A stretch of DNA of 30,710 nucleotides, taken from the NCBI GenBank assembly GCA_016840095.1, contig JAEOSZ010000036.1, positions 1 to 30,710 of the forward strand, read 5' to 3'. Below, one piece after another: positions 2,824 through 20,579 of this stretch. Under the pieces are notes generated by a model, which saw nothing but the letters and a program-made list of their open reading frames with translations, was not told the DNA's origin and ran no database searches. Position numbers and translations under genes: made by a program. The DNA is from Candidatus Heimdallarchaeota archaeon (GTDB lineage Archaea > Asgardarchaeota > Heimdallarchaeia > Heimdallarchaeales > Heimdallarchaeaceae). Position 1 is the first letter of the stretch; each line of letters begins with the position of its first letter.

Positions 2824-4229
2824 CAGAAACATGTAATTTTATATTTTCAAATTCAACAGTTTTACCTGCAACAGAGCGTGCAGGAAGTTTTAGTAAAGAA
2901 ATTGTAACAAGAGAAATGTATGGGTGGGCTAGAGATACTTTTGATCTTAAACGAGGGTCATTTGTTCTATTTCTTAGGAGTAATAAGAAGTGGTATTTAC
3001 TTGAACCCACAAGAAAACTTTCTAGATACCCATTAGAAAAGACTACAATGAGTGTAAGCGTAAAGAAAACTGTATCAGTGGAGAAAATTAAAGCTTTAAG
3101 ACAAGATCTTCTGGAGAAGAAAGAGTATTTTATGCCTTACGGAGTTACTCATGTACAGACCAAATCTTCTCAAGATACTAATAACTTACTAATTGAGTAT
3201 GCTTTAGATTTCTTGAAACAAGCAATAGATAATCCGTCTGAAGCATCTTTTTATATTCCCTCTCGAAGTGGTTCTAATGTAGGTTTTGACGAAGAACAAG
3301 AGTTGGTTTTGATTGGTCGTCAAATGATAGAACGTCAATTTAGGAGTTTATCTTCAGTAAGTTCTGTAGAACAGATGACGATTATAATGAAATTAATACA
3401 TGATCTCCTTTCTAGGGATATTCATAGTACAAAAAGAGATATTTTCTATATGGATGTGAATTCATTTGAAAAACAATCAGTCTCAGACTCATTAGTTGAA
3501 GATCTGAGTGCAATGCTTCAAGTCACAAGATCATCTCTTAACGTTAGTGCTTCTTCTAAAGGAATAGTTGTCGGTAGAATAAGTTTCAAAGAAAAAGGTG
3601 ATTTGATTGATTGTAGAGCTATAGGCGCAGGAAAAGCAATCTCTCCAAATATAGATGACATAGAGGATTTTGATTCAGATGCAGAAATGTGTCTAGTTAT
3701 AGAGAAAGATGCTGTTTTCAATAGGCTTACTGAAGATCACTTTTACGACTATGTACCAAGCATATTAATTACTGCAAAAGGACAACCTGATATAGCAACA
3801 AGACAGTTTCTTAAGAAGATAAACGATGATCTTAATCTACCAATATTTGCATTAATGGATGCAGACCCATATGGTTTTGAAATTATGAGGGTTTATAGTG
3901 TTGGTAGTAAGGCTCTAAGTTTTGAAAGCACAAATCTAGCAGTTCCGAATATTAAATGGTTGGGACTTCTTCCAAGTGATCTCTCTCAAGAAAGTGGGTT
4001 TGATATCCCTCGAAGTGCTCTACTAAAGCTAACTTCAAAGGATATACACAGATCTAAATTGATGTTAGAAGAGGAATTTGTAAAACGTAAACCTCGATGG
4101 GAGGAACAATTGCAGATACTAATTGCAAGTGGATTTAAAGCTGAAATACAAGCACTAAATGCAAGAGATCCACAATATATAACAAATTTCTATCTTCCAC
4201 AAAAAATCGATGCCGGAGACTTTATCTAA
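2820..4229 (+). CDS. top6A: DNA topoisomerase VI subunit A / Spo11 family protein with N-terminal extension
   Basis: Catalytic Tyr motif TKRDIFY (Tyr210), TOPRIM Glu in IEKDAVF, KGQPDIATR, DxD in DADPYG, C-terminal KAEIQAL. ATGA overlap with the upstream gene. Confidence 0.96.
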   Translation: MTETCNFIFSNSTVLPATERAGSFSKEIVTREMYGWARDTFDLKRGSFVLFLRSNKKWYLLEPTRKLSRYPLEKTTMSVSVKKTVSVEKIKALRQDLLEKKEYFMPYGVTHVQTKSSQDTNNLLIEYALDFLKQAIDNPSEASFYIPSRSGSNVGFDEEQELVLIGRQMIERQFRSLSSVSSVEQMTIIMKLIHDLLSRDIHSTKRDIFYMDVNSFEKQSVSDSLVEDLSAMLQVTRSSLNVSASSKGIVVGRISFKEKGDLIDCRAIGAGKAISPNIDDIEDFDSDAEMCLVIEKDAVFNRLTEDHFYDYVPSILITAKGQPDIATRQFLKKINDDLNLPIFALMDADPYGFEIMRVYSVGSKALSFESTNLAVPNIKWLGLLPSDLSQESGFDIPRSALLKLTSKDIHRSKLMLEEEFVKRKPRWEEQLQILIASGFKAEIQALNARDPQYITNFYLPQKIDAGDFI

Positions 4230-4286
4230 CATAAAGTATAAGGGAAAAATTTGAGAAAGGGTTTACTCAAGTAATGTATGTAAAAC

Positions 4287-4640
4287 CTATTTTTTCTTAA
4301 GTATTATTTCAATAGTTGAAACTGTCTTAGGTGGCATATTTTCTTCATCAGATTGAATTTCTTCGGAACCGATTATGACGTCAGTTGTTTCGACCATATC
4401 CTGCAAGAATTTCCTTCTAGTAATTTCTGCAACATCTACTGCTTTAGAAATTTGTCTTCCACGAGCTTGAATATGACATGTATCGCTTTTGTTTAGTATT
4501 GTAACTGCAACTAGAACATAGCTTATGGTGTTTTTCTTACCAATATAGATTATTTGGCTTTGTTCTTGTTTCTTTGCAGGGGCTTTCTTTGCAGGAGCCT
4601 TCTTAGGTGCTTTTTTTTCAGTTGTTTCTTCATCACTCAT
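4287..4640 (-). CDS. albA: Alba chromatin (DNA/RNA-binding) protein with N-terminal KKAP(A) repeat tail
   Basis: IYIGKK..SYV, ARGRQISKAVDVAE and VSTIEI are Alba signatures. ATG at 4640 is preceded by a GGTGA Shine-Dalgarno, so it is preferred over 4649. Confidence 0.95.
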   Translation of the reverse strand: MSDEETTEKKAPKKAPAKKAPAKKQEQSQIIYIGKKNTISYVLVAVTILNKSDTCHIQARGRQISKAVDVAEITRRKFLQDMVETTDVIIGSEEIQSDEENMPPKTVSTIEIILKKK

Positions 4641-4795
4641 TTTGATCACCTGTAATATGTATTTACTATTATGCTTATGAGTAAGTAATAAAATGGCTCA
4701 CAACAAACTTAAAAATATTTCTACCTCAAAAGCATAAAAGAATATAAGTATCTAGTCCTCTGTTCCCCCAAGAAGCCTCTAAAGAGTAGAATGAG

Positions 4796-6505
4796 ATGAA
4801 AAAAAATAGATACCTTCGAGATTTTCTTCTGATTTCAATTAGCGTTTTCTCTCTTTCTATAATTTCTTTAGCCTTTGAATGGTTCTTACCTAAAATAGAC
4901 ACACGTGTTGATTCTCTTTTATATGGAGTAACTATTAGACACTCTGTATTTCTCTACATAGCTGTGGTAATTTCCTTCTTCTTATATGGATGGCACTTGA
5001 GAAGATGGTTCATCAAAAATAACTTCGAAACTGGAGATAAATCCTTTAACCATTTAATCTTGGTTCTTCTACCTATTTTTCTAGTTGGACTTGTTTACTC
5101 AGTAATAATTTCTTTTCTAAATCTTCCTGAACTACACATGTTTGTAAGATTTTCATCTCTCTTTCTAGAAGTTCTGCAATTTGTTGCAGTTAGTGCTATT
5201 TTAGGAGTTTTCTTCTATTCATCAATTGAAAGAAGGATGAGTAATCTGTTCAATAAAGAAATTCTAGAAGTAAAAGATAATGAGCTAGGTATCTCTTTGT
5301 TTCCAAAACAGATAAAACAAAACTCTAGAAAGTTTGGTGTTTTTCTTTCAATAAGTATAGCAAGCGTCTTTATACTCATAAACATGATACTGTTGATAAT
5401 TTATCCATCTGTAAAAGCAGTAACTATTGAAGCTGATTTAGATTTCTTTTATCCAAATTTCTGGTTTCAATTCGACCCTGCAGATGGATTAGCTCAAGAA
5501 TATTTCAAGAGAACATCAATCCCTTCTAATATTGTTTTTGATTGGAAACTTGCTCAAGCTATTCTTTCAGTAGTATTAATTTGTCTAATAATTTCAGTTC
5601 TCATAATAAGGGGAGAAGAAAAAGAAATCAAAAAAAAGACAGAATCAACAAAACTAACCAAAGAAGTAGAAGAAGAAAATCAGGAAGAAATCGCACTTAG
5701 ATTGTTTAATCCTAATACTAAAAATAATGAATATGTTCCCTCAAAATTTATAGAAACTACGACTTCTAGAAAGTATCTTCAATTCTTTTCCAGAGTAAAT
5801 CAAAGTAGTTTTCTACCTGCAATGAAGTTGATTGTGATAGGTATTTTTGCAATTCTATTTTCAGTTACTATCTTGCAAAATACAAATGCTTTGGGAAAAA
5901 TTTCACAAATCAATGATGAATATTCCAACTACATTCGCTTTACTCAGGTAATATGGGAAGGTTTTGGAGAAGAAATTATGTTTAGGCTTATACTATTTGG
6001 TTTACCTCTGTTTGTAATATATGGAGCACTCTATTCTATAAATAGAATATATGATATTCGATTAAAAAACAAATCACAGAATAAGGAAAAATCAATATTC
6101 GAAAGATATTTCATAAAGGAAAAATTGCAAAATCCTCTTTACTTCTTATCAGGTGGGTGGAAAAGATTAGATATACTATCTGTGATTTTGTTGATGTTCT
6201 CCTCTATTTCCTTTGCATATGTTCAAGCTCCTTATGGTTGGAATCCTTGGAAGATGATTTATGCATCAATTCTAGGACTTGTTTGTGGTTATGCATACTG
6301 CAAATATGGTTTGCATACTGCGATTCTGATCAATATTTCAACTTCTTTACTAATGAATTGGATTTTTGTTTCAAACCATGGTATAATACTTAATTCTCCA
6401 TTTTTGGTTTTTATTTGTTTGATCATTGGTTCCATTATTCTTCTGATTTTATTCTCACTAGCACTTTCTAAACTCTTTAAATTAGGTAGTAAATTGTTTA
6501 ATTAG
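4796..6505 (+). CDS. Polytopic membrane protein with C-terminal CPBP (Rce1/Abi, type II CAAX protease) domain, probably catalytically degenerate
   Basis: Many hydrophobic segments. EEIMFR (EExxxR) is present, while motif FxxxH reads FAYVQ and HxxxN reads NISTS. Confidence 0.8.
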   Translation: MKKNRYLRDFLLISISVFSLSIISLAFEWFLPKIDTRVDSLLYGVTIRHSVFLYIAVVISFFLYGWHLRRWFIKNNFETGDKSFNHLILVLLPIFLVGLVYSVIISFLNLPELHMFVRFSSLFLEVLQFVAVSAILGVFFYSSIERRMSNLFNKEILEVKDNELGISLFPKQIKQNSRKFGVFLSISIASVFILINMILLIIYPSVKAVTIEADLDFFYPNFWFQFDPADGLAQEYFKRTSIPSNIVFDWKLAQAILSVVLICLIISVLIIRGEEKEIKKKTESTKLTKEVEEENQEEIALRLFNPNTKNNEYVPSKFIETTTSRKYLQFFSRVNQSSFLPAMKLIVIGIFAILFSVTILQNTNALGKISQINDEYSNYIRFTQVIWEGFGEEIMFRLILFGLPLFVIYGALYSINRIYDIRLKNKSQNKEKSIFERYFIKEKLQNPLYFLSGGWKRLDILSVILLMFSSISFAYVQAPYGWNPWKMIYASILGLVCGYAYCKYGLHTAILINISTSLLMNWIFVSNHGIILNSPFLVFICLIIGSIILLILFSLALSKLFKLGSKLFN

Positions 6506-6543
6506 TACATCTTTGATTTGTCAAATGATTCTAAACTAAGAAA

Positions 6544-7143
6544 GTGATAATTTTGAGCTATGGACAAAAACTCTATTTGAAAGTTATACTTGCTGGAGAA
6601 GCAGGTGTAGGTAAAACTAGTCTTCGTCGATCATACCTGGGAGATGGTTTTATTACTGAACATCTTCAAACAATAGGTGCGGATTTTGCATCGTTACCAA
6701 AAAAAGTCCAGGACTATTCAGTTCTGTTCCAAATATGGGATATTGCTGGACAAAAAATATTTGAAAATTTGAGAATGTTGTACTATAAAGGTGCTTTAGG
6801 AGCATTAATGGTTTTTGACGCTAAAAAATTATCAACTCTTAAGAAACTAGATCAATGGATTGCTGAATTAGAAACTGGAACTGAACGAGGAATAGTTCCA
6901 TTTTCTGTTTTAGGGAATAAAATGGACTTAATTACACCAGCAACCAGAGATAAGATTAGAACACAAGTTAAGGTATATATTCAAACACTGAACAAGAAAT
7001 ATAAGGAAAAAGGATTCAACGTTGAATACTTTGAGACTTCAGCTAAAACTAATGAAAATGTCAGCGATGCTTTTGAGAATCTAGGATCTAAAATTATAGA
7101 TTTTATTCAATTTAGGAAGGATATGAGGAGGAAAAATGCTTGA
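6544..7143 (+). CDS. Rab/Ras-superfamily small GTPase
   Basis: G1 GEAGVGKTS, G2 TIGADF, G3 WDIAGQ, YYKGA, G4 NKMD, G5 ETSAK. No C-terminal Cys. The start may be the TTG at 6553. Confidence 0.95.
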   Translation: MIILSYGQKLYLKVILAGEAGVGKTSLRRSYLGDGFITEHLQTIGADFASLPKKVQDYSVLFQIWDIAGQKIFENLRMLYYKGALGALMVFDAKKLSTLKKLDQWIAELETGTERGIVPFSVLGNKMDLITPATRDKIRTQVKVYIQTLNKKYKEKGFNVEYFETSAKTNENVSDAFENLGSKIIDFIQFRKDMRRKNA

Positions 7144-9491
7144 ATAAAGACTCTATACGCTCTTTTCTTCTCAGCAACCAATCAGAAAGAATTCCTTTAG
7201 GGAATCTTAAGGTACTTCATCTATTAGTCGAATTAATGGCAGATGATGAAGAAAGAATCAGAAAGAAGAGTTCAGAATTAATTTTAAAATCTGGATTTTT
7301 TCCTACAGATAAGATAATTGATTACTATCTGAAAAATCCACATACACATATTAGACAGATAATTATTAAGAATCTTAAATCCTTCATACCTGTTCTCTAC
7401 AAGTATCTAACAAATGATTCAAGCTTTGATTTAATCTATGAGATAACACATTCTCTTAAACCTGAAGAGCTATTTAAGCCATTAAAAGCGGCTTATAAGG
7501 TCGTTCCTACACTTTCAACTCTCACAGAACTTGCATTAAGAACTTGTGATTCAGATTTTTCGAATTTGGAAGATACTTATATAACATTCAATTTCGTTTC
7601 AGAACAATCTAAAGAAATAAAGAAAATTCTATTGTATAGATTAAAGCAATCAAAAACATTGTATAGCGAATTAACACTTCTTACTGTTACTAAATACCCA
7701 GAATTGGCTGAATTGATTATTAAAAGTATCAAAGACATTGTTCTCAAAGACAAAAATGAAGTTAGTATCCAATATGGTGCTTCAGCTTTGATGTTAGTTG
7801 ATGATCCTAAAAACAGTGACGTCTTAATAGAAAGATTGTCGAATAAAACAGATTCAAATGAAACTAAACTAACAATCATAGAAGCTCTAGGTAATCTTGG
7901 TAATACTAATGCTTGCGAAGTTCTAGTAAAACAATTCGAAAAAGGAGAGCCTTTAGCATATTATGCTGCAAGATCTTTGGCATTACTTGGAGAAGCTGTT
8001 CTTCCATTTCTTATTTCTGCTCTTGAAGAAGATAAGAATGTTCCCTATATTATTGAATCTATGAAAAGAATAGGCGAAACAAGCTATGACTCTCTGATGA
8101 GTGCACTTCAAAAGGGTAAGAAAAATGTTAGAAGAAATGCTGCACAATGTCTAACTCTGGTAATGAGTGAAAAATATGGATATGAAGGAGCAATAAGGTT
8201 ACTGACAGGTCAACTAGCAGGAAAGAATCCTGCAGTAATCGAAGCAGTTACAGAAGCCTTACTTACTCTGGGGACACCTTCAATAAGAGTGCTGATAGAA
8301 CAGCTTAATGATGATGATTTAAGGTTAAGGAAGAATGCTGTTGAAGTCTTACATTATTTTGGTGTAAATAATATTGATTTATCATTAGATGGATTACTAG
8401 ATGTTGATAAATTACTTGTAGTAAAACTCGGTATCATTTTGTATATCTATTATCCAGATGAAGAACTTCAGAACTTAGGATATTCTTTTGCTATTCAATC
8501 TGGAAAGATCCAAAGTAAAGATGATGAAATTTTCAAAATTGTTGAACATTCATTGAAGGAAATTGAACCTGAAATTAGGGTAAAAGGATGCGGCATTATG
8601 CCTCAGTTTGGTGCAAAAGCTGTTCCCCCTCTTACTACTCTTCTCACTGATCCAAATATTAAAGTTAGAAGAAGCACAGTTGATTCCCTAAGAAAAATCA
8701 AGAGTAAAAGAGCCTTAATTACTTTGATTAATGCCGCAAAAAGACCTGATGATGTGATTGCAGAAATTGCAACTCGAGCTCTAGGAGAATTAAGAGATCC
8801 TGGAGTTATTGATGTTATCATTAATAATATGAAAAGACCAAAGAAATTAGTTAGGGATGCAGCAGTATATGCAGCTGTTAATATTGGACCTCCAATTGCT
8901 AAGAAGCTGTTTGTTAATCTCAACTCACCAAATAACAATCTAGTTAATGCAACTGTAGAATCTCTTGAACAAATGGATCCTAAAGTTCTAGAGTTTGCAT
9001 TTTCAGATTTAGCCAAGAGAGATGAGAAATGGTTTAGAAATCTACAACGAATTGTTATTAAAATGGGTACTTCCGCTAAGAAAGTACTTAAAGCTAGATA
9101 TACTAAAGAAAAGAACGAGAAAGCTCTAACTAGACTGATTATCTTGCTTTCACATGCTAAAGATACTTCAATAATTTCAAATCTTATTAAGATAATTATC
9201 GAAGACGATGTAAAGACTGGGGTTACAGCCTTTAATAACTTAGGAAAAGATGGTTTAAAACAATTAGTAAAAGAACTGAAGAAAGCATCCCAGAAAAGAC
9301 AAGTCACCTTTATTGAAAAAAGTCGTGGGTTGAAATCTGAGCTAGTAATAGACATCTTAGAGATTTCGAATAAGGAGGATAAGCTAAAGGATTTAACTCC
9401 ACACATAATAAAGAATCACTCAAGAGCAATTAGAAAATATTGTCAAGATAGTAAACTGAATTTTAATGATTACGCTAAGAAATTTCAATGA
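7140..9491 (+). CDS. HEAT-repeat (PBS-lyase-type) alpha-solenoid protein
   Basis: Repeated motifs such as IIEALGNLGN, AARSLALLGE, VRRNAAQCL, LTDPNIKVRRSTVDSLRKI and ATRALGELRD. Overlaps the GTPase stop codon (TTGA). Confidence 0.9.
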   Translation: MNKDSIRSFLLSNQSERIPLGNLKVLHLLVELMADDEERIRKKSSELILKSGFFPTDKIIDYYLKNPHTHIRQIIIKNLKSFIPVLYKYLTNDSSFDLIYEITHSLKPEELFKPLKAAYKVVPTLSTLTELALRTCDSDFSNLEDTYITFNFVSEQSKEIKKILLYRLKQSKTLYSELTLLTVTKYPELAELIIKSIKDIVLKDKNEVSIQYGASALMLVDDPKNSDVLIERLSNKTDSNETKLTIIEALGNLGNTNACEVLVKQFEKGEPLAYYAARSLALLGEAVLPFLISALEEDKNVPYIIESMKRIGETSYDSLMSALQKGKKNVRRNAAQCLTLVMSEKYGYEGAIRLLTGQLAGKNPAVIEAVTEALLTLGTPSIRVLIEQLNDDDLRLRKNAVEVLHYFGVNNIDLSLDGLLDVDKLLVVKLGIILYIYYPDEELQNLGYSFAIQSGKIQSKDDEIFKIVEHSLKEIEPEIRVKGCGIMPQFGAKAVPPLTTLLTDPNIKVRRSTVDSLRKIKSKRALITLINAAKRPDDVIAEIATRALGELRDPGVIDVIINNMKRPKKLVRDAAVYAAVNIGPPIAKKLFVNLNSPNNNLVNATVESLEQMDPKVLEFAFSDLAKRDEKWFRNLQRIVIKMGTSAKKVLKARYTKEKNEKALTRLIILLSHAKDTSIISNLIKIIIEDDVKTGVTAFNNLGKDGLKQLVKELKKASQKRQVTFIEKSRGLKSELVIDILEISNKEDKLKDLTPHIIKNHSRAIRKYCQDSKLNFNDYAKKFQ

Positions 9492-9500
9492 TTCTAAGTT

Positions 9501-10565
9501 TTAGTAAAGTTTTTCTAATGGTATTTGACCTGCACCAATATCTTCTTTTTTATCTAGTAAGCTCGAAAAAGTCTTCACAATACTAGGAGCTGCAGATAAT
9601 TCAAAATATAAGGGTATATTCACGTGGAACATCTTCTTTGATGCTGCTGCAGTTATCCACTCATTTGTAGAATCACAGATACTGACTTGTGTATGATAAG
9701 AATCAATTATTTCCAATGAATCTATTGATGAAAATAATTCTCCAAAATCCTTCTTTACTCTGTTAATACTTTCCTTCTCATTGTTTATTTCTGAAGAGCG
9801 AAGAATATGAAAATAACCTGCTTCTTCCAACCACATAGATGATGCTGTAGATATATCGTAGAGACTAACTCTTGGAAATCTTTCAAGAATAGGAGTAATT
9901 ACTTTCAGTAGTTTTCTCTTTTTCAGTACAGAGTCAGAACACTGATTGGTAGAGGTTGTAACTACGTAATCTTTGGCACAATAAAGAGCATTTTCAGAAA
10001 TAATTTCATCATTTTTGCTAATACTAATTCCTGAATTATCATTAATTACCTTAACATCATTTTCAATAGCTAGCTTCAGGAAAGTTGTGTATAACTCATA
10101 GGGATTAGAACATGTGGCGGAATTGTATATCTCTGTGAGATAAATTTCCTTAGATGTGTTTATGAAAGGGTAATAAGATTCAATTTCTTCAATTGATAAA
10201 TTTGTGTGCCGAATTTTTGTATTTGTAAGTTTATCCCTATGTTCACTCATTTGTTCAATTGAAAATTTATCTCTGTAAAGAACAAGATATGGATTCTGAT
10301 AGAATTCAAAATATGCTGTAGTTGAATGAAGATCTGTAATAATCTCTTTTGTTCTATGAAATACCTTTTCCATTAAGTTAGCTGGTAGTTTAAATAGGGG
10401 GAAAATACTTCCAGGAGTGTATATTGTAGAATTAATATTTTCTGTTTTCCTTAAAACTAGATTTATGGTTTTGTCTTGATTCTTTGTTGAAAGGAAATAC
10501 GAAAACATCGCAGCTACTAATCCTTCTCCTTCAATTAATATATCACTCTGAATATTCTCATCCAT
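9501..10565 (-). CDS. Divergent FAD-dependent oxidoreductase-like protein (DAO / sarcosine oxidase beta fold)
   Basis: N-terminal DILIEGEGLVAAMFSYFL resembles a dinucleotide-binding motif. LSIEEIESYYPFI and NPYELYTTFLKLAIENDVKV match typical DAO-family segments. Confidence 0.6.
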   Translation of the reverse strand: MDENIQSDILIEGEGLVAAMFSYFLSTKNQDKTINLVLRKTENINSTIYTPGSIFPLFKLPANLMEKVFHRTKEIITDLHSTTAYFEFYQNPYLVLYRDKFSIEQMSEHRDKLTNTKIRHTNLSIEEIESYYPFINTSKEIYLTEIYNSATCSNPYELYTTFLKLAIENDVKVINDNSGISISKNDEIISENALYCAKDYVVTTSTNQCSDSVLKKRKLLKVITPILERFPRVSLYDISTASSMWLEEAGYFHILRSSEINNEKESINRVKKDFGELFSSIDSLEIIDSYHTQVSICDSTNEWITAAASKKMFHVNIPLYFELSAAPSIVKTFSSLLDKKEDIGAGQIPLEKLY

Positions 10566-15271: not shown

Positions 15272-16195
15272 CTATGATTGAAACATCCTAGAAACAAGTT
15301 TTTTCCTGCAATTAGGACACTGTGGTTTTACTTTGATCCATTCAACAATATGTGCAAAGTGTGAAGGAATTTCACAGAACGGACATCTAACAAAACTTTC
15401 TCCAGCTTTAATTGGAGACATACATACACTACATCTCTCATCTAAATCAGAAGTAGCGATTTTCAAAGGTTGTGTAACTGGAGACTTTGATGCAGGTATG
15501 GGTTTAGCTTCTACTTCAGTTTCTTCTTCCTCTTCTTTTACTTCAGCAGCTATTTCCTCTAGTTCTTCCAGGCTTACTTTTTCTTCAACTTCTTGAATAA
15601 CAATAGATTGATCAATTGTACCTACTTCAACTACATCACTTGGTGTTATGTCAGCTACTGATTTTCCAATGGTAGCTAAAACTGCATCAGCTTCTTCTTC
15701 TAAGCCTTTTTCGAAGAGAATGTATGCTGAAATTTCTGTTTCTCCACTGTCATAGAAGTATCTAGAGAGGTTTCTAACCATTTCTTCTTCTCTTTCTGGA
15801 GCATATCTAGAAATAATTTGAATAGAATCTGGAACAAATTCTCTTCCTTTGGCAGCTATAGATTTAGCAGCGCCGAAAACTCTTCCTGTTTTGAGGTATT
15901 CTTCTTTAGCTCTATCGAACATCCCTGCACGGAAGTATTCATCAGCGCTTGCATAAGCAGCACGAGAATCAGATTCAATACTTTCTGAATAGTCAGATCT
16001 GTCTCCAGGTGATGTAGATTCATATGGTGTTACACCTGTTCTGGAAAATTGCGTTTGTCCTGATGGTTGATATGGTTTATACCTCTTCTTTGGAGCATTC
16101 TTCTTCTTCTTGCTTTTAACAGCAGCTCTTGCTGCCACTATCAAAGAGATGGCAATGAAAACCAAGAAGATTAATAATCCGTATTCCATAGGCAT
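15272..16195 (-). CDS. Membrane-anchored protein with short alpha-solenoid and C-terminal RING finger; putative E3 ubiquitin ligase
   Basis: N-terminal TM followed by a poly-Lys stop-transfer. Helical repeats ADEYFRAGMFDRAKEEYLKTG. C-x2-C-x12-C-x2-C-x4-H-x2-H-x3-W-x6-C-P-x-C at the C-terminus. Confidence 0.82.
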   Translation of the reverse strand: MPMEYGLLIFLVFIAISLIVAARAAVKSKKKKNAPKKRYKPYQPSGQTQFSRTGVTPYESTSPGDRSDYSESIESDSRAAYASADEYFRAGMFDRAKEEYLKTGRVFGAAKSIAAKGREFVPDSIQIISRYAPEREEEMVRNLSRYFYDSGETEISAYILFEKGLEEEADAVLATIGKSVADITPSDVVEVGTIDQSIVIQEVEEKVSLEELEEIAAEVKEEEEETEVEAKPIPASKSPVTQPLKIATSDLDERCSVCMSPIKAGESFVRCPFCEIPSHFAHIVEWIKVKPQCPNCRKKLVSRMFQS

Positions 16196-20045: not shown

Positions 20046-20579
20046 ATGTCATTACCTCCCAATGTTACTTACATCATTAAAATTATCAATGCTGGAGATT
20101 ATGCGGTTGGTAAAACAAGTTTAGCAATTCGCTATACTCAAAACCGTTTTTCATCCTCGTATCTTCCAACACTTGGTGTAGATTTCTATAGTAAAATGAT
20201 TCAACATGATGAAGATACAACATTGAGGTTAGTTCTCTTTGATACAGTAGGTCAGGAAAAATTAGTTACTCTCAGAAAACGATATTATACAGGTGCTCAT
20301 GGAGCTGTTGTAGTTTTTGACATAACTAGAAAAGAATCCTTTGAACACATAGAAAATTGGATCAATGAAGTCGAAGAAAAGTGTACTGATATCCCTATTA
20401 TTATTGTGGGAAACAAAACTGACCTAGATGAAGAAAGGGCTGTAGATTTCAAAGATCTGGAAAAGAAATGGGGCTCAAAAGGTTATACAGTACTAGAATC
20501 GTCAGCTAAACTGGGAGAAGGAGTTAACGATATTTATACGATAATTGCAAAGAAAGTAATGGAGAAAATGGGATATTAA
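20046..20579 (+). CDS. Rab-like small GTPase
   Basis: G1 GDYAVGKTS, G2 YLPTLGVDF, G3 DTVGQE, YYTGAHG, G4 GNKTD, G5 ESSAK. No hypervariable tail or terminal Cys. Confidence 0.95.
   Translation: MSLPPNVTYIIKIINAGDYAVGKTSLAIRYTQNRFSSSYLPTLGVDFYSKMIQHDEDTTLRLVLFDTVGQEKLVTLRKRYYTGAHGAVVVFDITRKESFEHIENWINEVEEKCTDIPIIIVGNKTDLDEERAVDFKDLEKKWGSKGYTVLESSAKLGEGVNDIYTIIAKKVMEKMGY

Follow-up and report, generated by a model that had tools for sequence, protein, structure and literature searches.

A conserved gene trio of Heimdallarchaeaceae, predicted to be an operon, joins a Rab-like GTPase gene to genes for a CPBP-domain membrane protein and a HEAT solenoid

Introduction

The genomes of Asgard archaea carry eukaryote-like small GTPases by the dozen, the one considered here having 25. 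Their genes rarely adjoin those of regulators, so that gene order gives no hint of their partners (PMC10933270; 10.1101/2020.10.19.343400), and a conserved neighbourhood is also lacking for most Asgard ESP genes (10.1101/2020.10.19.343400). In a contig of 30,710 nucleotides from Candidatus Heimdallarchaeota archaeon (GCA_016840095.1, JAEOSZ010000036.1; this whole stretch is called the window), the gene for a Rab-like GTPase lies between one for a membrane protein (MEM) and one for a 783-residue HEAT repeat protein (HEAT783). Do these three genes belong together, and if they do, what kind of module would they encode? We followed the trio through related genomes, characterized each of the three proteins, and compared the arrangement with known systems.

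Results

Three closely adjoining genes

The ORF coordinates place all three genes on the + strand, with a 38-bp gap followed by a 4-bp overlap, and thus bear out the arrangement described in an earlier note on this DNA. The features of the locus are as follows.

4796..6505, + strand: MEM, 569 aa, ATG start (ORF listing and translation)
6506..6543: MEM-GTPase spacer, 38 bp
6544..7143, + strand: Rab-like small GTPase, 199 aa, GTG start (ORF listing and translation)
7125..7131, + strand: GAGGAGG Shine-Dalgarno-like motif, within the GTPase tail codons (M-R-R-K), 8 nt before the HEAT783 TTG
7140..7143: GTPase-HEAT overlap, 4 bp (TTGA), in which the HEAT783 TTG start overlaps the GTPase stop
7140..9491, + strand: HEAT783, 783 aa, TTG start (ORF listing and translation)

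The non-ATG starts of the GTPase and HEAT783 genes are supported by the N-termini of their orthologs, which align at the same positions. In the 17 loci compared, the MEM-GTPase junction measures -4 to +38 bp and the GTPase-HEAT junction -4 to +24 bp, and nearly all of these loci have a purine-rich motif of the GAGG/GGAG type directly 5' of the HEAT start.

The trio is conserved throughout Heimdallarchaeaceae

The full-length HEAT protein was found in all 30 of the other Heimdallarchaeaceae genomes, which represent 5 genera, and all loci of the family with enough flanking DNA, in every genus searched, had the complete trio. The GTPase gene is always found between the gene for the 12-helix MEM and that for the ~780-aa HEAT solenoid, with stop and start codons touching or overlapping. 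Since the three-gene arrangement recurs in every related locus examined, it is not a product of chance. We give a probability of about 0.55 to the reading that the trio is a single conserved operon, predicted to be co-transcribed and translationally coupled, which is specific to Heimdallarchaeaceae and encodes a membrane-associated small-GTPase switch module.

Genome and protein-library searches confined the full-length HEAT protein and MEM to this family. Five other families of the class yielded no full-length HEAT protein, the HEAT profile giving short repeat-level matches only, and neither the closest GTPases in three of these families (f3, f5 and f6) nor a second one in the sister family (f2) had a HEAT or MEM neighbour. 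The conserved gene neighbourhood that the earlier note had proposed to look for in Asgard genomes is therefore present in Heimdallarchaeaceae but is not Asgard-wide. In one sister-family genome the GTPase gene closest to that of the trio is paired with the gene of an 826-aa HEAT protein, the only other HEAT783-like protein found; MEM is absent and an HTH-like gene stands in its place. The GTPase of this pair takes a weak sister position to the trio GTPases (support 87/51), and its best BLAST match in the window's genome is not the trio GTPase but the C3 paralog (52% vs 43%). Because of the HTH-like gene and this best match, the membership of MEM in the module is weaker than the pairing of GTPase and HEAT protein.

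These comparisons also bear on a different explanation, namely that the three genes act independently and are neighbours by descent only, in a housekeeping region that is slow to rearrange (top6, alba, ubiA, radA). Within a genus the whole block is collinear; across genera several flanking genes are still syntenic, and within the family a large part of the 15-kb block around the trio (Alba, orf354, UbiA and RadA) is syntenic too. Moreover, the trio proteins occur in one family only, so that conservation is gauged over limited divergence, and the conservation of the trio could in part be gene order inherited among related genomes. Against this, stop/start overlaps and junctions of 0-2 bp recur where HEAT identity is down to 37-45% and where the flanks are broken on both sides: the trio persists without top6 upstream in two complete genomes (L028 and L029), without Alba in L022 and L031, and without orf354 in L018. 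In addition, the GTPase coding sequence contains the Shine-Dalgarno-like motif of the HEAT gene, and the GTPase-HEAT pair is found in a different context in the sister family. Descent alone is, on this evidence, an unlikely explanation of the trio.

The GTPase is Rab-like and lacks a lipid-anchor cysteine

The GTPase matches Pfam Ras (1.5e-36), and its top PDB matches are Rab7 (1.2e-28), Ypt51, Rab11 and Rab18, and also the Thorarchaeota Rab 7ezb. Its G1 (GEAGVGKT), switch I Thr (T43), G3 (WDIAGQ, with Q70), G4 (NKMD) and G5 (SAK) motifs are kept in 16/16 aligned sequences, and the RabF-like motifs IGADF, FQIWD and YYKGA are present. The sequence thus identifies a Rab-like member of the Ras superfamily, as had been claimed earlier, with no particular eukaryotic Rab implied; it has all of the catalytic motifs of an active Ras/Rab-type switch and lacks the lipid-anchor cysteine. 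The trio GTPases form one clade (support 100/100), apart from the 17 genome paralogs placed in the tree. An extended G4-G5 region was considered as a marker of this clade and rejected, as several paralogs share the feature.

The C-terminal tail (FRKDMRRKNA) is basic and free of Cys, and Cys is likewise missing from the tails of all 16 orthologs. Among the 25 small GTPases of the genome (the trio GTPase and 24 paralogs) not one has a C-terminal Cys, and the trio GTPase is the only one with a polybasic tail. The basic tail may be conserved partly on account of the embedded Shine-Dalgarno motif rather than for membrane binding. No match to the prenyltransferase alpha subunit (PPTA) was found in the genome, which is 89% complete; the corresponding beta-subunit search carries no weight, its control having been silent. 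CPBP proteins were present in 11 of 14 control genomes and are thus ordinary in prokaryotes. The suggestion that a Rce1-like protein adjoins the GTPase gene in order to process prenylated Ras-family tails is consequently not supported for this genome.

HEAT783 is a solenoid of prokaryotic type

HEAT783 matches HEAT_2 in four stretches (9.8e-37) and HEAT_PBS (2e-11) in Pfam, and its AF2 model is an all-alpha solenoid with a pLDDT of 90.9. Conservation is highest at residues ~330-420, which are followed by canonical repeats of the PBS/alphaRep type (~460-680). By both sequence and structure its best matches are alphaRep (21-27% identity, Z 13-15.6) and bilin-lyase repeats (MpeQ, Z 13). Its scores fall far short of the NCBIfam equivalog cut-offs for NblB (56.2 vs 300 bits) and CpcF (50.4 vs 220 bits). 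HEAT783 is a HEAT repeat protein of the prokaryotic PBS/alphaRep type, whose hallmarks are tandem repeats of ~31 residues and an all-alpha solenoid fold, and the caveat of the earlier note that the repeats look like those of PBS lyases was well founded.

The same note had linked the solenoid to those of the Ran-importin beta and Arf-adaptin systems, and this raises the possibility that the trio is a proto-trafficking module homologous to these systems, with tail processing of the Rce1 type. In its favour, the GTPase is Rab-like, with Rab7, Ypt51 and Rab11 as its best solved relatives, and long HEAT solenoids match karyopherins, CAND1, SF3B1 and AP2 generically. However, the eukaryotic solenoids (9-13% identity to HEAT783, Z about 11-13, TM 0.16-0.25) are surpassed by the PBS/alphaRep and bilin-lyase repeats, and karyopherins and AP2 do not score above SF3B1, CAND1 and Integrator. 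Fold searches returned generic solenoids and alphaRep only, with no specific eukaryotic family and hence no specific karyopherin or adaptin match, and Adaptin_N and IBN_N are absent from the Pfam families matched. As the GTPases lack a C-terminal Cys, PPTA gave no match, CPBP proteins are widespread among prokaryotes of both domains, and the module is confined to one family, we consider such homology very improbable. A complex prediction for GTPase residues 10-189 (with GTP and Mg) and HEAT783, run with custom alignments, scored 0.00 vs a mark of 0.32 and carries no weight either way. With only about 40 orthologs, the set is too small for co-evolution statistics.

MEM carries a CPBP domain that has lost its histidines in one subclade

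The AF2 model of MEM (pLDDT 71) has about 12 long helices. From the positive-inside rule we infer an N-in/C-in topology, with K/E-rich cytoplasmic loops at ~272-338 and ~411-458. The N-terminal half (residues 1-335) is multi-helix and matches no known family, and the C-terminal half is a CPBP/Rce1-like domain, matched by PF02517 at residues 383-513 with 23.7 bits vs a cut-off of 22.4 (25.9 bits in the genome-wide search). The Pfam match is marginal, with E<=0.01 in only 2 of 15 MEM orthologs; NCBI names the orthologs CPBP family intramembrane protease. Residues 219-560 of the model align with SpdC (6u0o; Z 6.2, 190 aligned) and MmRce1 (4cad; Z 5.7, 171 aligned), these being modest Z values for a whole-protein model of pLDDT 71. 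Foldseek of the model against the PDB gave no match at E<=0.001, and a MEM profile search gave none among PDB sequences. The next-closest CPBP proteins, in a library of 1.8 billion proteins, were DZR zinc-ribbon/CPBP fusions paired with HycI; we set these aside as a different family.

The catalytic motifs of CPBP proteins are EExxxR, FxxxH and HxxxN, and in the window they read as follows.

5969..5986, + strand: CPBP motif 1 (EExxxR), EEIMFR, residues 392-397; intact, and invariant across orthologs
6212..6226, + strand: CPBP motif 2 (FxxxH), FAYVQ, His replaced by Gln
6332..6346, + strand: CPBP motif 3 (HxxxN), NISTS, with Asn in place of His and without the Asn-Asn pair

Both replacements are fixed in the window's subclade (the window, L002, L012, L013, P0065-P0073 and P0075), in which the operon is still intact. 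For motif 2 the other orthologs all have FG(Y/F)(V/A)H, and for motif 3 nearly all have HxxN(N/D), the library representative P0084 (HVTMD) being an exception outside the subclade. Judged by these motifs, the MEM family as a whole is CPBP, with a window copy that is likely a pseudo-protease, and in most members the domain is probably an active intramembrane protease. MEM is the fastest-evolving of the three proteins, with 26-53% identity among orthologs vs 56-91% for the GTPase and 37-75% for the HEAT protein, a point against the reading as a single operon.

The trio might instead encode a regulated intramembrane protease, with the CPBP domain as its catalytic output and with the GTPase and HEAT protein delivering or gating a non-prenylated substrate. 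The retention of all three motifs in most orthologs speaks for this, as do the fold matches to Rce1 and SpdC and the NCBI ortholog names. It is countered by the window's subclade, which stably lacks both histidines and the Asn with the operon intact, and by the lack of a candidate substrate, a C-terminal Cys being found in none of the 25 small GTPases; we therefore regard a protease output as unlikely. The replacement of both histidines in a subclade that has kept the operon implies that the conserved role of MEM is more likely scaffolding or reception than proteolysis.

Discussion

If the trio is a membrane-associated switch module, as we prefer to read it, its parts could work together in the following way. 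Since prenylation is precluded for the GTPase, MEM would probably serve as its membrane platform, either as a receptor or as a regulated output; the two large cytoplasmic loops of MEM are likely candidate docking sites. The HEAT solenoid would probably be a nucleotide-state-dependent partner of the GTPase, i.e. an effector scaffold or a regulator of the GEF/GAP type. A more specific version, which we hold to be quite doubtful, is that a Rab-like switch is placed at the membrane in a self-contained way, independently of a lipid anchor: a dedicated polytopic receptor of CPBP-protease origin would recruit the GTPase, which in its GTP state would recruit the large alpha-solenoid scaffold, in a manner analogous to, and independent of, eukaryotic coat recruitment.

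Literature searches found no published description of a MEM-GTPase-HEAT operon, and several known systems resemble it in part. Liu et al. (10.1101/2020.10.19.343400) reported a putative Asgard operon of a LAMTOR1-like Roadblock protein, a Rab-like GTPase and a DENN protein, described as conserved in most Asgard archaea. Both clusters are conserved in Asgard genomes and join a Rab-like GTPase to candidate regulators or partners, but the candidate partners here are MEM and HEAT783 in place of Roadblock and DENN proteins, and the trio is confined to Heimdallarchaeaceae. The ArvA-ArvB-ArvC operon of Haloferax volcanii acts at the membrane in the formation of extracellular vesicles; ArvA is compared with the Arf-family vesicle GTPases of eukaryotes rather than with Rabs, ArvB has DUF2073, and the vesicles are enriched in a HEAT-PBS alpha-solenoid protein, HVO_1020, which is not reported within the operon (PMC10927574). 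Here too an archaeal small GTPase is encoded in a three-gene operon, joint membrane action being known for Arv; ArvB and ArvC are, however, different proteins from MEM and HEAT783, and the likeness is one of description.

Similar comparisons can be made for the separate parts. MEM shares with CPBP/Rce1-like proteins (the protease MmRce1, 4cad, and the S. aureus scaffold SpdC, 6u0o) the three motifs of most orthologs, with a modest fold match besides, and departs from them in its extra N-terminal half of ~335 residues, its marginal Pfam scores, the absence of a prenylated substrate and the His-less window copy. HEAT783 is like PBS-lyase-type HEAT proteins (HEAT_PBS, PF03130; CpcE/F, NblB, MpeQ; the alphaRep design family) in its repeats at ~460-680, but it is 3-4 times longer, has a family-specific centre (330-420), comes from a non-phototrophic archaeon and adjoins a GTPase.

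Since Asgard GTPase genes are mostly outside operons with regulators, a conserved operon is informative, and the trio is a rare case in which two fixed candidate partners of an Asgard Rab-like GTPase can be read from gene order. By itself the operon has no bearing on the origin of eukaryotic trafficking; its parts are prokaryotic in type and occur in a single family. It does pose the question of how a non-prenylated Asgard GTPase reaches the membrane and of what it switches there, and the subclade without the protease histidines, set beside the rest of the family that has them, provides a natural experiment which separates a scaffold role of MEM from a catalytic one. If the receptor-switch-scaffold reading is true, the trio would represent a prokaryotic architecture of this kind in an archaeon that is among the nearest relatives of eukaryotes.

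A conserved three-gene operon

The earlier note's description of three co-oriented genes was accurate. The ORFs, the 38-bp spacer between the genes for MEM (a polytopic membrane protein) and the Rab-like GTPase, the 4-bp overlap (TTGA) between the GTPase gene and that for HEAT783 (a HEAT-repeat solenoid), and the Pfam assignments were all found.

4796-6505, + strand: MEM, 569 aa; PF02517-type Rce1-like/CPBP Pfam match
6544-7143, + strand: GTPase, 199 aa, GTG start; Pfam Ras
7125-7131, + strand: GAGGAGG motif, 8 nt 5' of the HEAT783 TTG start
7140-9491, + strand: HEAT783, 783 aa, TTG start; Pfam HEAT_2 and HEAT_PBS

The E-values were 1.5e-36 for Ras, 9.8e-37 for HEAT_2 and 2e-11 for HEAT_PBS; the MEM match was weak (23.7 bits vs a cut-off of 22.4, residues 383-513).

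Of 24 same-genus genomes searched with the HEAT783 protein, 23 had a single full-length copy, and a profile built from 15 orthologs found it at full length in 30/30 other Heimdallarchaeaceae genomes, which span five genera. Elsewhere in the class, in five further families, the profile matched only short stretches at the level of repeats. The source names on the orthologs were Candidatus Heimdallarchaeaceae or Heimdallarchaeota. Loci were compared among same-genus genomes, four of the five Heimdallarchaeaceae genera and metagenome contigs, and the order MEM-GTPase-HEAT was kept on a single strand in every locus with sufficient flanking DNA. Across 17 loci the genes were spaced by -4 to +38 bp at the MEM-GTPase junction and by -4 to +24 bp at the GTPase-HEAT junction, and nearly all had an SD-like purine-rich motif (GAGG/GGAG-type) 5' of the HEAT start.

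Inherited synteny alone is a rival explanation for this arrangement. Same-genus synteny is little informative here, because a whole 15-kb block is fully collinear within the genus. Across genera the flanks break: top6 is missing upstream in two complete genomes (L028 and L029), alba in L022 and L031, and the convergent gene orf354 in L018, and the order of radA, dCTP deaminase and RING genes varies. The trio was unbroken even where HEAT identity was just 37-45% (compared with the window proteins, the GTPase was 56-91% identical, HEAT 37-75% and MEM 26-53%). The neighbourhood check proposed earlier thus found the trio's order kept across Heimdallarchaeaceae genera despite broken flanks. The operon is real and conserved.

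Genomic setting

The window assembly comprises 3.44 Mb in 165 contigs, is 89% complete and contains 25 small GTPase paralogs. The trio's surroundings are housekeeping genes, in the order Top6B-fused giant ORF (C-terminal end), top6A, alba (opposite strand), the trio, orf354 (convergent), UbiA prenyltransferase and radA; the region is neither a mobile nor a defence island.

1-2823, + strand: C-terminal end of the giant ORF, 5'-open; 4-bp overlap with top6A at 2820-2823
9501-10565, - strand: orf354, 354 aa; 9-bp gap to the convergent HEAT783 gene
15272-16195, - strand: RING-finger protein, 307 aa; C-terminal zf-RING_2, Prok-RING_1
20046-20579, + strand: second small GTPase paralog, 36% identity to the trio GTPase; separate clade in the tree

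The giant protein is 4,144-4,341 aa long in relatives, with a Topo VI B transducer domain (PF09239) in at least one, and in Heimdallarchaeaceae a very long HhH-rich stretch appears to be joined to Top6B. orf354 adjoins the trio in nearly all loci and had no Pfam match; its N-terminus (ILIEGEGLVAA) resembles a dinucleotide-binding motif in degenerate form, and a faint DAO match was seen for one ortholog. The RING protein is encoded close to radA and to the gene for dCTP deaminase, and relatives carry genes annotated as RING-finger at shifted positions in the corresponding regions.

The GTPase and its C-terminal tail

In the ortholog alignment the G motifs, switch I Thr and catalytic Gln were all conserved, and the closest solved structures were Rab7, Ypt51, Rab11, Rab18 and a Thorarchaeota Rab. 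The earlier note's appeal to Rce1 acting on prenylated tails was not supported: a tail Cys was absent from every ortholog aligned, the last six residues lacked Cys in 25/25 small GTPases of the window genome, and searching that 89%-complete genome for PPTA (prenyltransferase alpha) gave no match (in the beta-subunit search the control was silent). CPBP proteins are moreover ordinary in prokaryotes, occurring in 11 of 14 control genomes, and alongside MEM the window genome encodes three canonical ones.

At its C-terminus the GTPase is set apart only by a basic tail, (F/Y)RKxMRxK, absent from the paralogs. In the window its codons ATG AGG AGG AAA encode M-R-R-K (7123-7134). Conservation of the tail is not simply interpretable as a membrane-binding signal, because the same AGG codons form the SD motif of the HEAT gene; protein and RNA constraints on the tail are confounded.

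MEM

The AF2 model of MEM has about 12 long helices (pLDDT 71). Its C-terminal half was covered by fold matches to two structures only, both CPBP structures that the library of representatives contains: SpdC (Z 6.2, 190 aligned residues) and MmRce1 (Z 5.7, 171 aligned). The N-terminal 335 residues matched nothing known. The charge distribution of MEM suggests that the topology is N-in/C-in and that two large loops face the cytoplasm.

A rival reading is that the operon encodes a regulated protease. Most MEM orthologs contain EExxxR, FG(Y/F)(V/A)H and HxxN(N/D), the three CPBP motifs, and those outside the window subclade keep them. Within that subclade of the genus (the window, L002, L012, L013 and about ten database clusters, P0065-P0073 and P0075) the second and third motifs read FAYVQ or YAYVQ (6212-6226 in the window) and NISTS or NIATE (6332-6346), so that loss of both CPBP histidines is fixed. 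Because one subclade has lost the catalytic histidines yet retains the operon, the alignment argues for a conserved role of MEM other than proteolysis.

When 1.8 billion representatives were searched with a profile, full-length MEM relatives turned up in only about ten clusters. The next-tier matches were 600-640-aa zinc-ribbon/CPBP fusions paired with HycI, and were rejected as a different family. Their CPBP domains are the closest to MEM outside the family:

L032, 2019-4521: zinc-ribbon/CPBP + HycI pair
L033, 1440-3845: zinc-ribbon/CPBP + HycI pair
L034, 6001-8415: zinc-ribbon/CPBP + HycI pair

Each CPBP protein has an N-terminal double zinc ribbon, and its gene is followed by one for a HycI-type hydrogenase maturation protease, apparently a further conserved pair.

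HEAT783

HEAT783 is modelled by AF2 with high confidence (pLDDT 90.9) as entirely helical, and its conserved centre, residues 330-420, is specific to the family. Among solved structures its sequence matched only alphaRep designs and another HEAT-repeat protein (residues about 460-630). Structural re-ranking placed alphaRep top (Z 13-15.6, 21-27% identity). The bilin lyase MpeQ scored Z 13, and Z was about 11-13, with 9-13% identity, for SF3B1, karyopherins, CAND1, Integrator, beta-catenin and AP2; scores against lyase equivalog models were far under the cut-offs. Since alphaRep and MpeQ rank above the eukaryotic solenoids, HEAT783 is a long solenoid of prokaryotic-type repeats, which bears out the earlier caveat that the repeats were of the PBS-lyase type; these comparisons gave no specific tie to importins or adaptins.

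The GTPase-HEAT pair outside the family

A locus of a sister-family genome (L017, contig C174 of G025) contains a GTPase gene (2842-3417) followed, after a 91-bp gap, by a gene for an 826-aa HEAT protein (3509-5989), with an HTH-like gene instead of MEM upstream. The HEAT protein is collinear with HEAT783 (319-548 vs 332-592), non-repeat stretches included, and HEAT783 was its sole match in the window genome. The best BLAST match of the L017 GTPase there was another paralog, C3 (52% vs 43% for the trio GTPase); the maximum-likelihood tree made it the sister of the trio clade, weakly supported (87/51), whereas the trio clade as such had a long stem and support of 100/100. No HEAT or MEM neighbour was found beside the closest GTPases of three further families, nor beside the second one of G025. 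The L017 pair lacking MEM and its position in the tree therefore suggest, from this one locus, that the GTPase-HEAT pairing may be older than the Heimdallarchaeaceae and that MEM may have joined later.

Interpretation

On the best-supported reading, the trio is a translationally coupled operon, specific to the family, whose products would make up a membrane-located GTPase switch module. Because the architecture is conserved and a lipid anchor is absent, MEM would likely serve as a platform for the GTPase and HEAT783 as its state-dependent partner. True homology to eukaryotic trafficking modules is the least supported of the rival explanations, and the eukaryote-like framing of the trio was not supported.

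No published description of the MEM-GTPase-HEAT combination was found in the literature, and the operon is apparently undescribed. In Haloferax, ArvA acts in vesicle formation together with ArvB and ArvC, which share its operon, and the vesicles are enriched in a HEAT-PBS solenoid (PMC10927574). Liu et al. reported a putative Roadblock-Rab-like-DENN operon, conserved neighbourhoods being absent for most ESP genes (10.1101/2020.10.19.343400). According to Tran et al., Asgard GTPase partners are hard to predict because the GTPase genes do not as a rule share operons with genes for Roadblock, longin or TRAPPC3 (PMC10933270). The trio is a testable Asgard GTPase-partner set.
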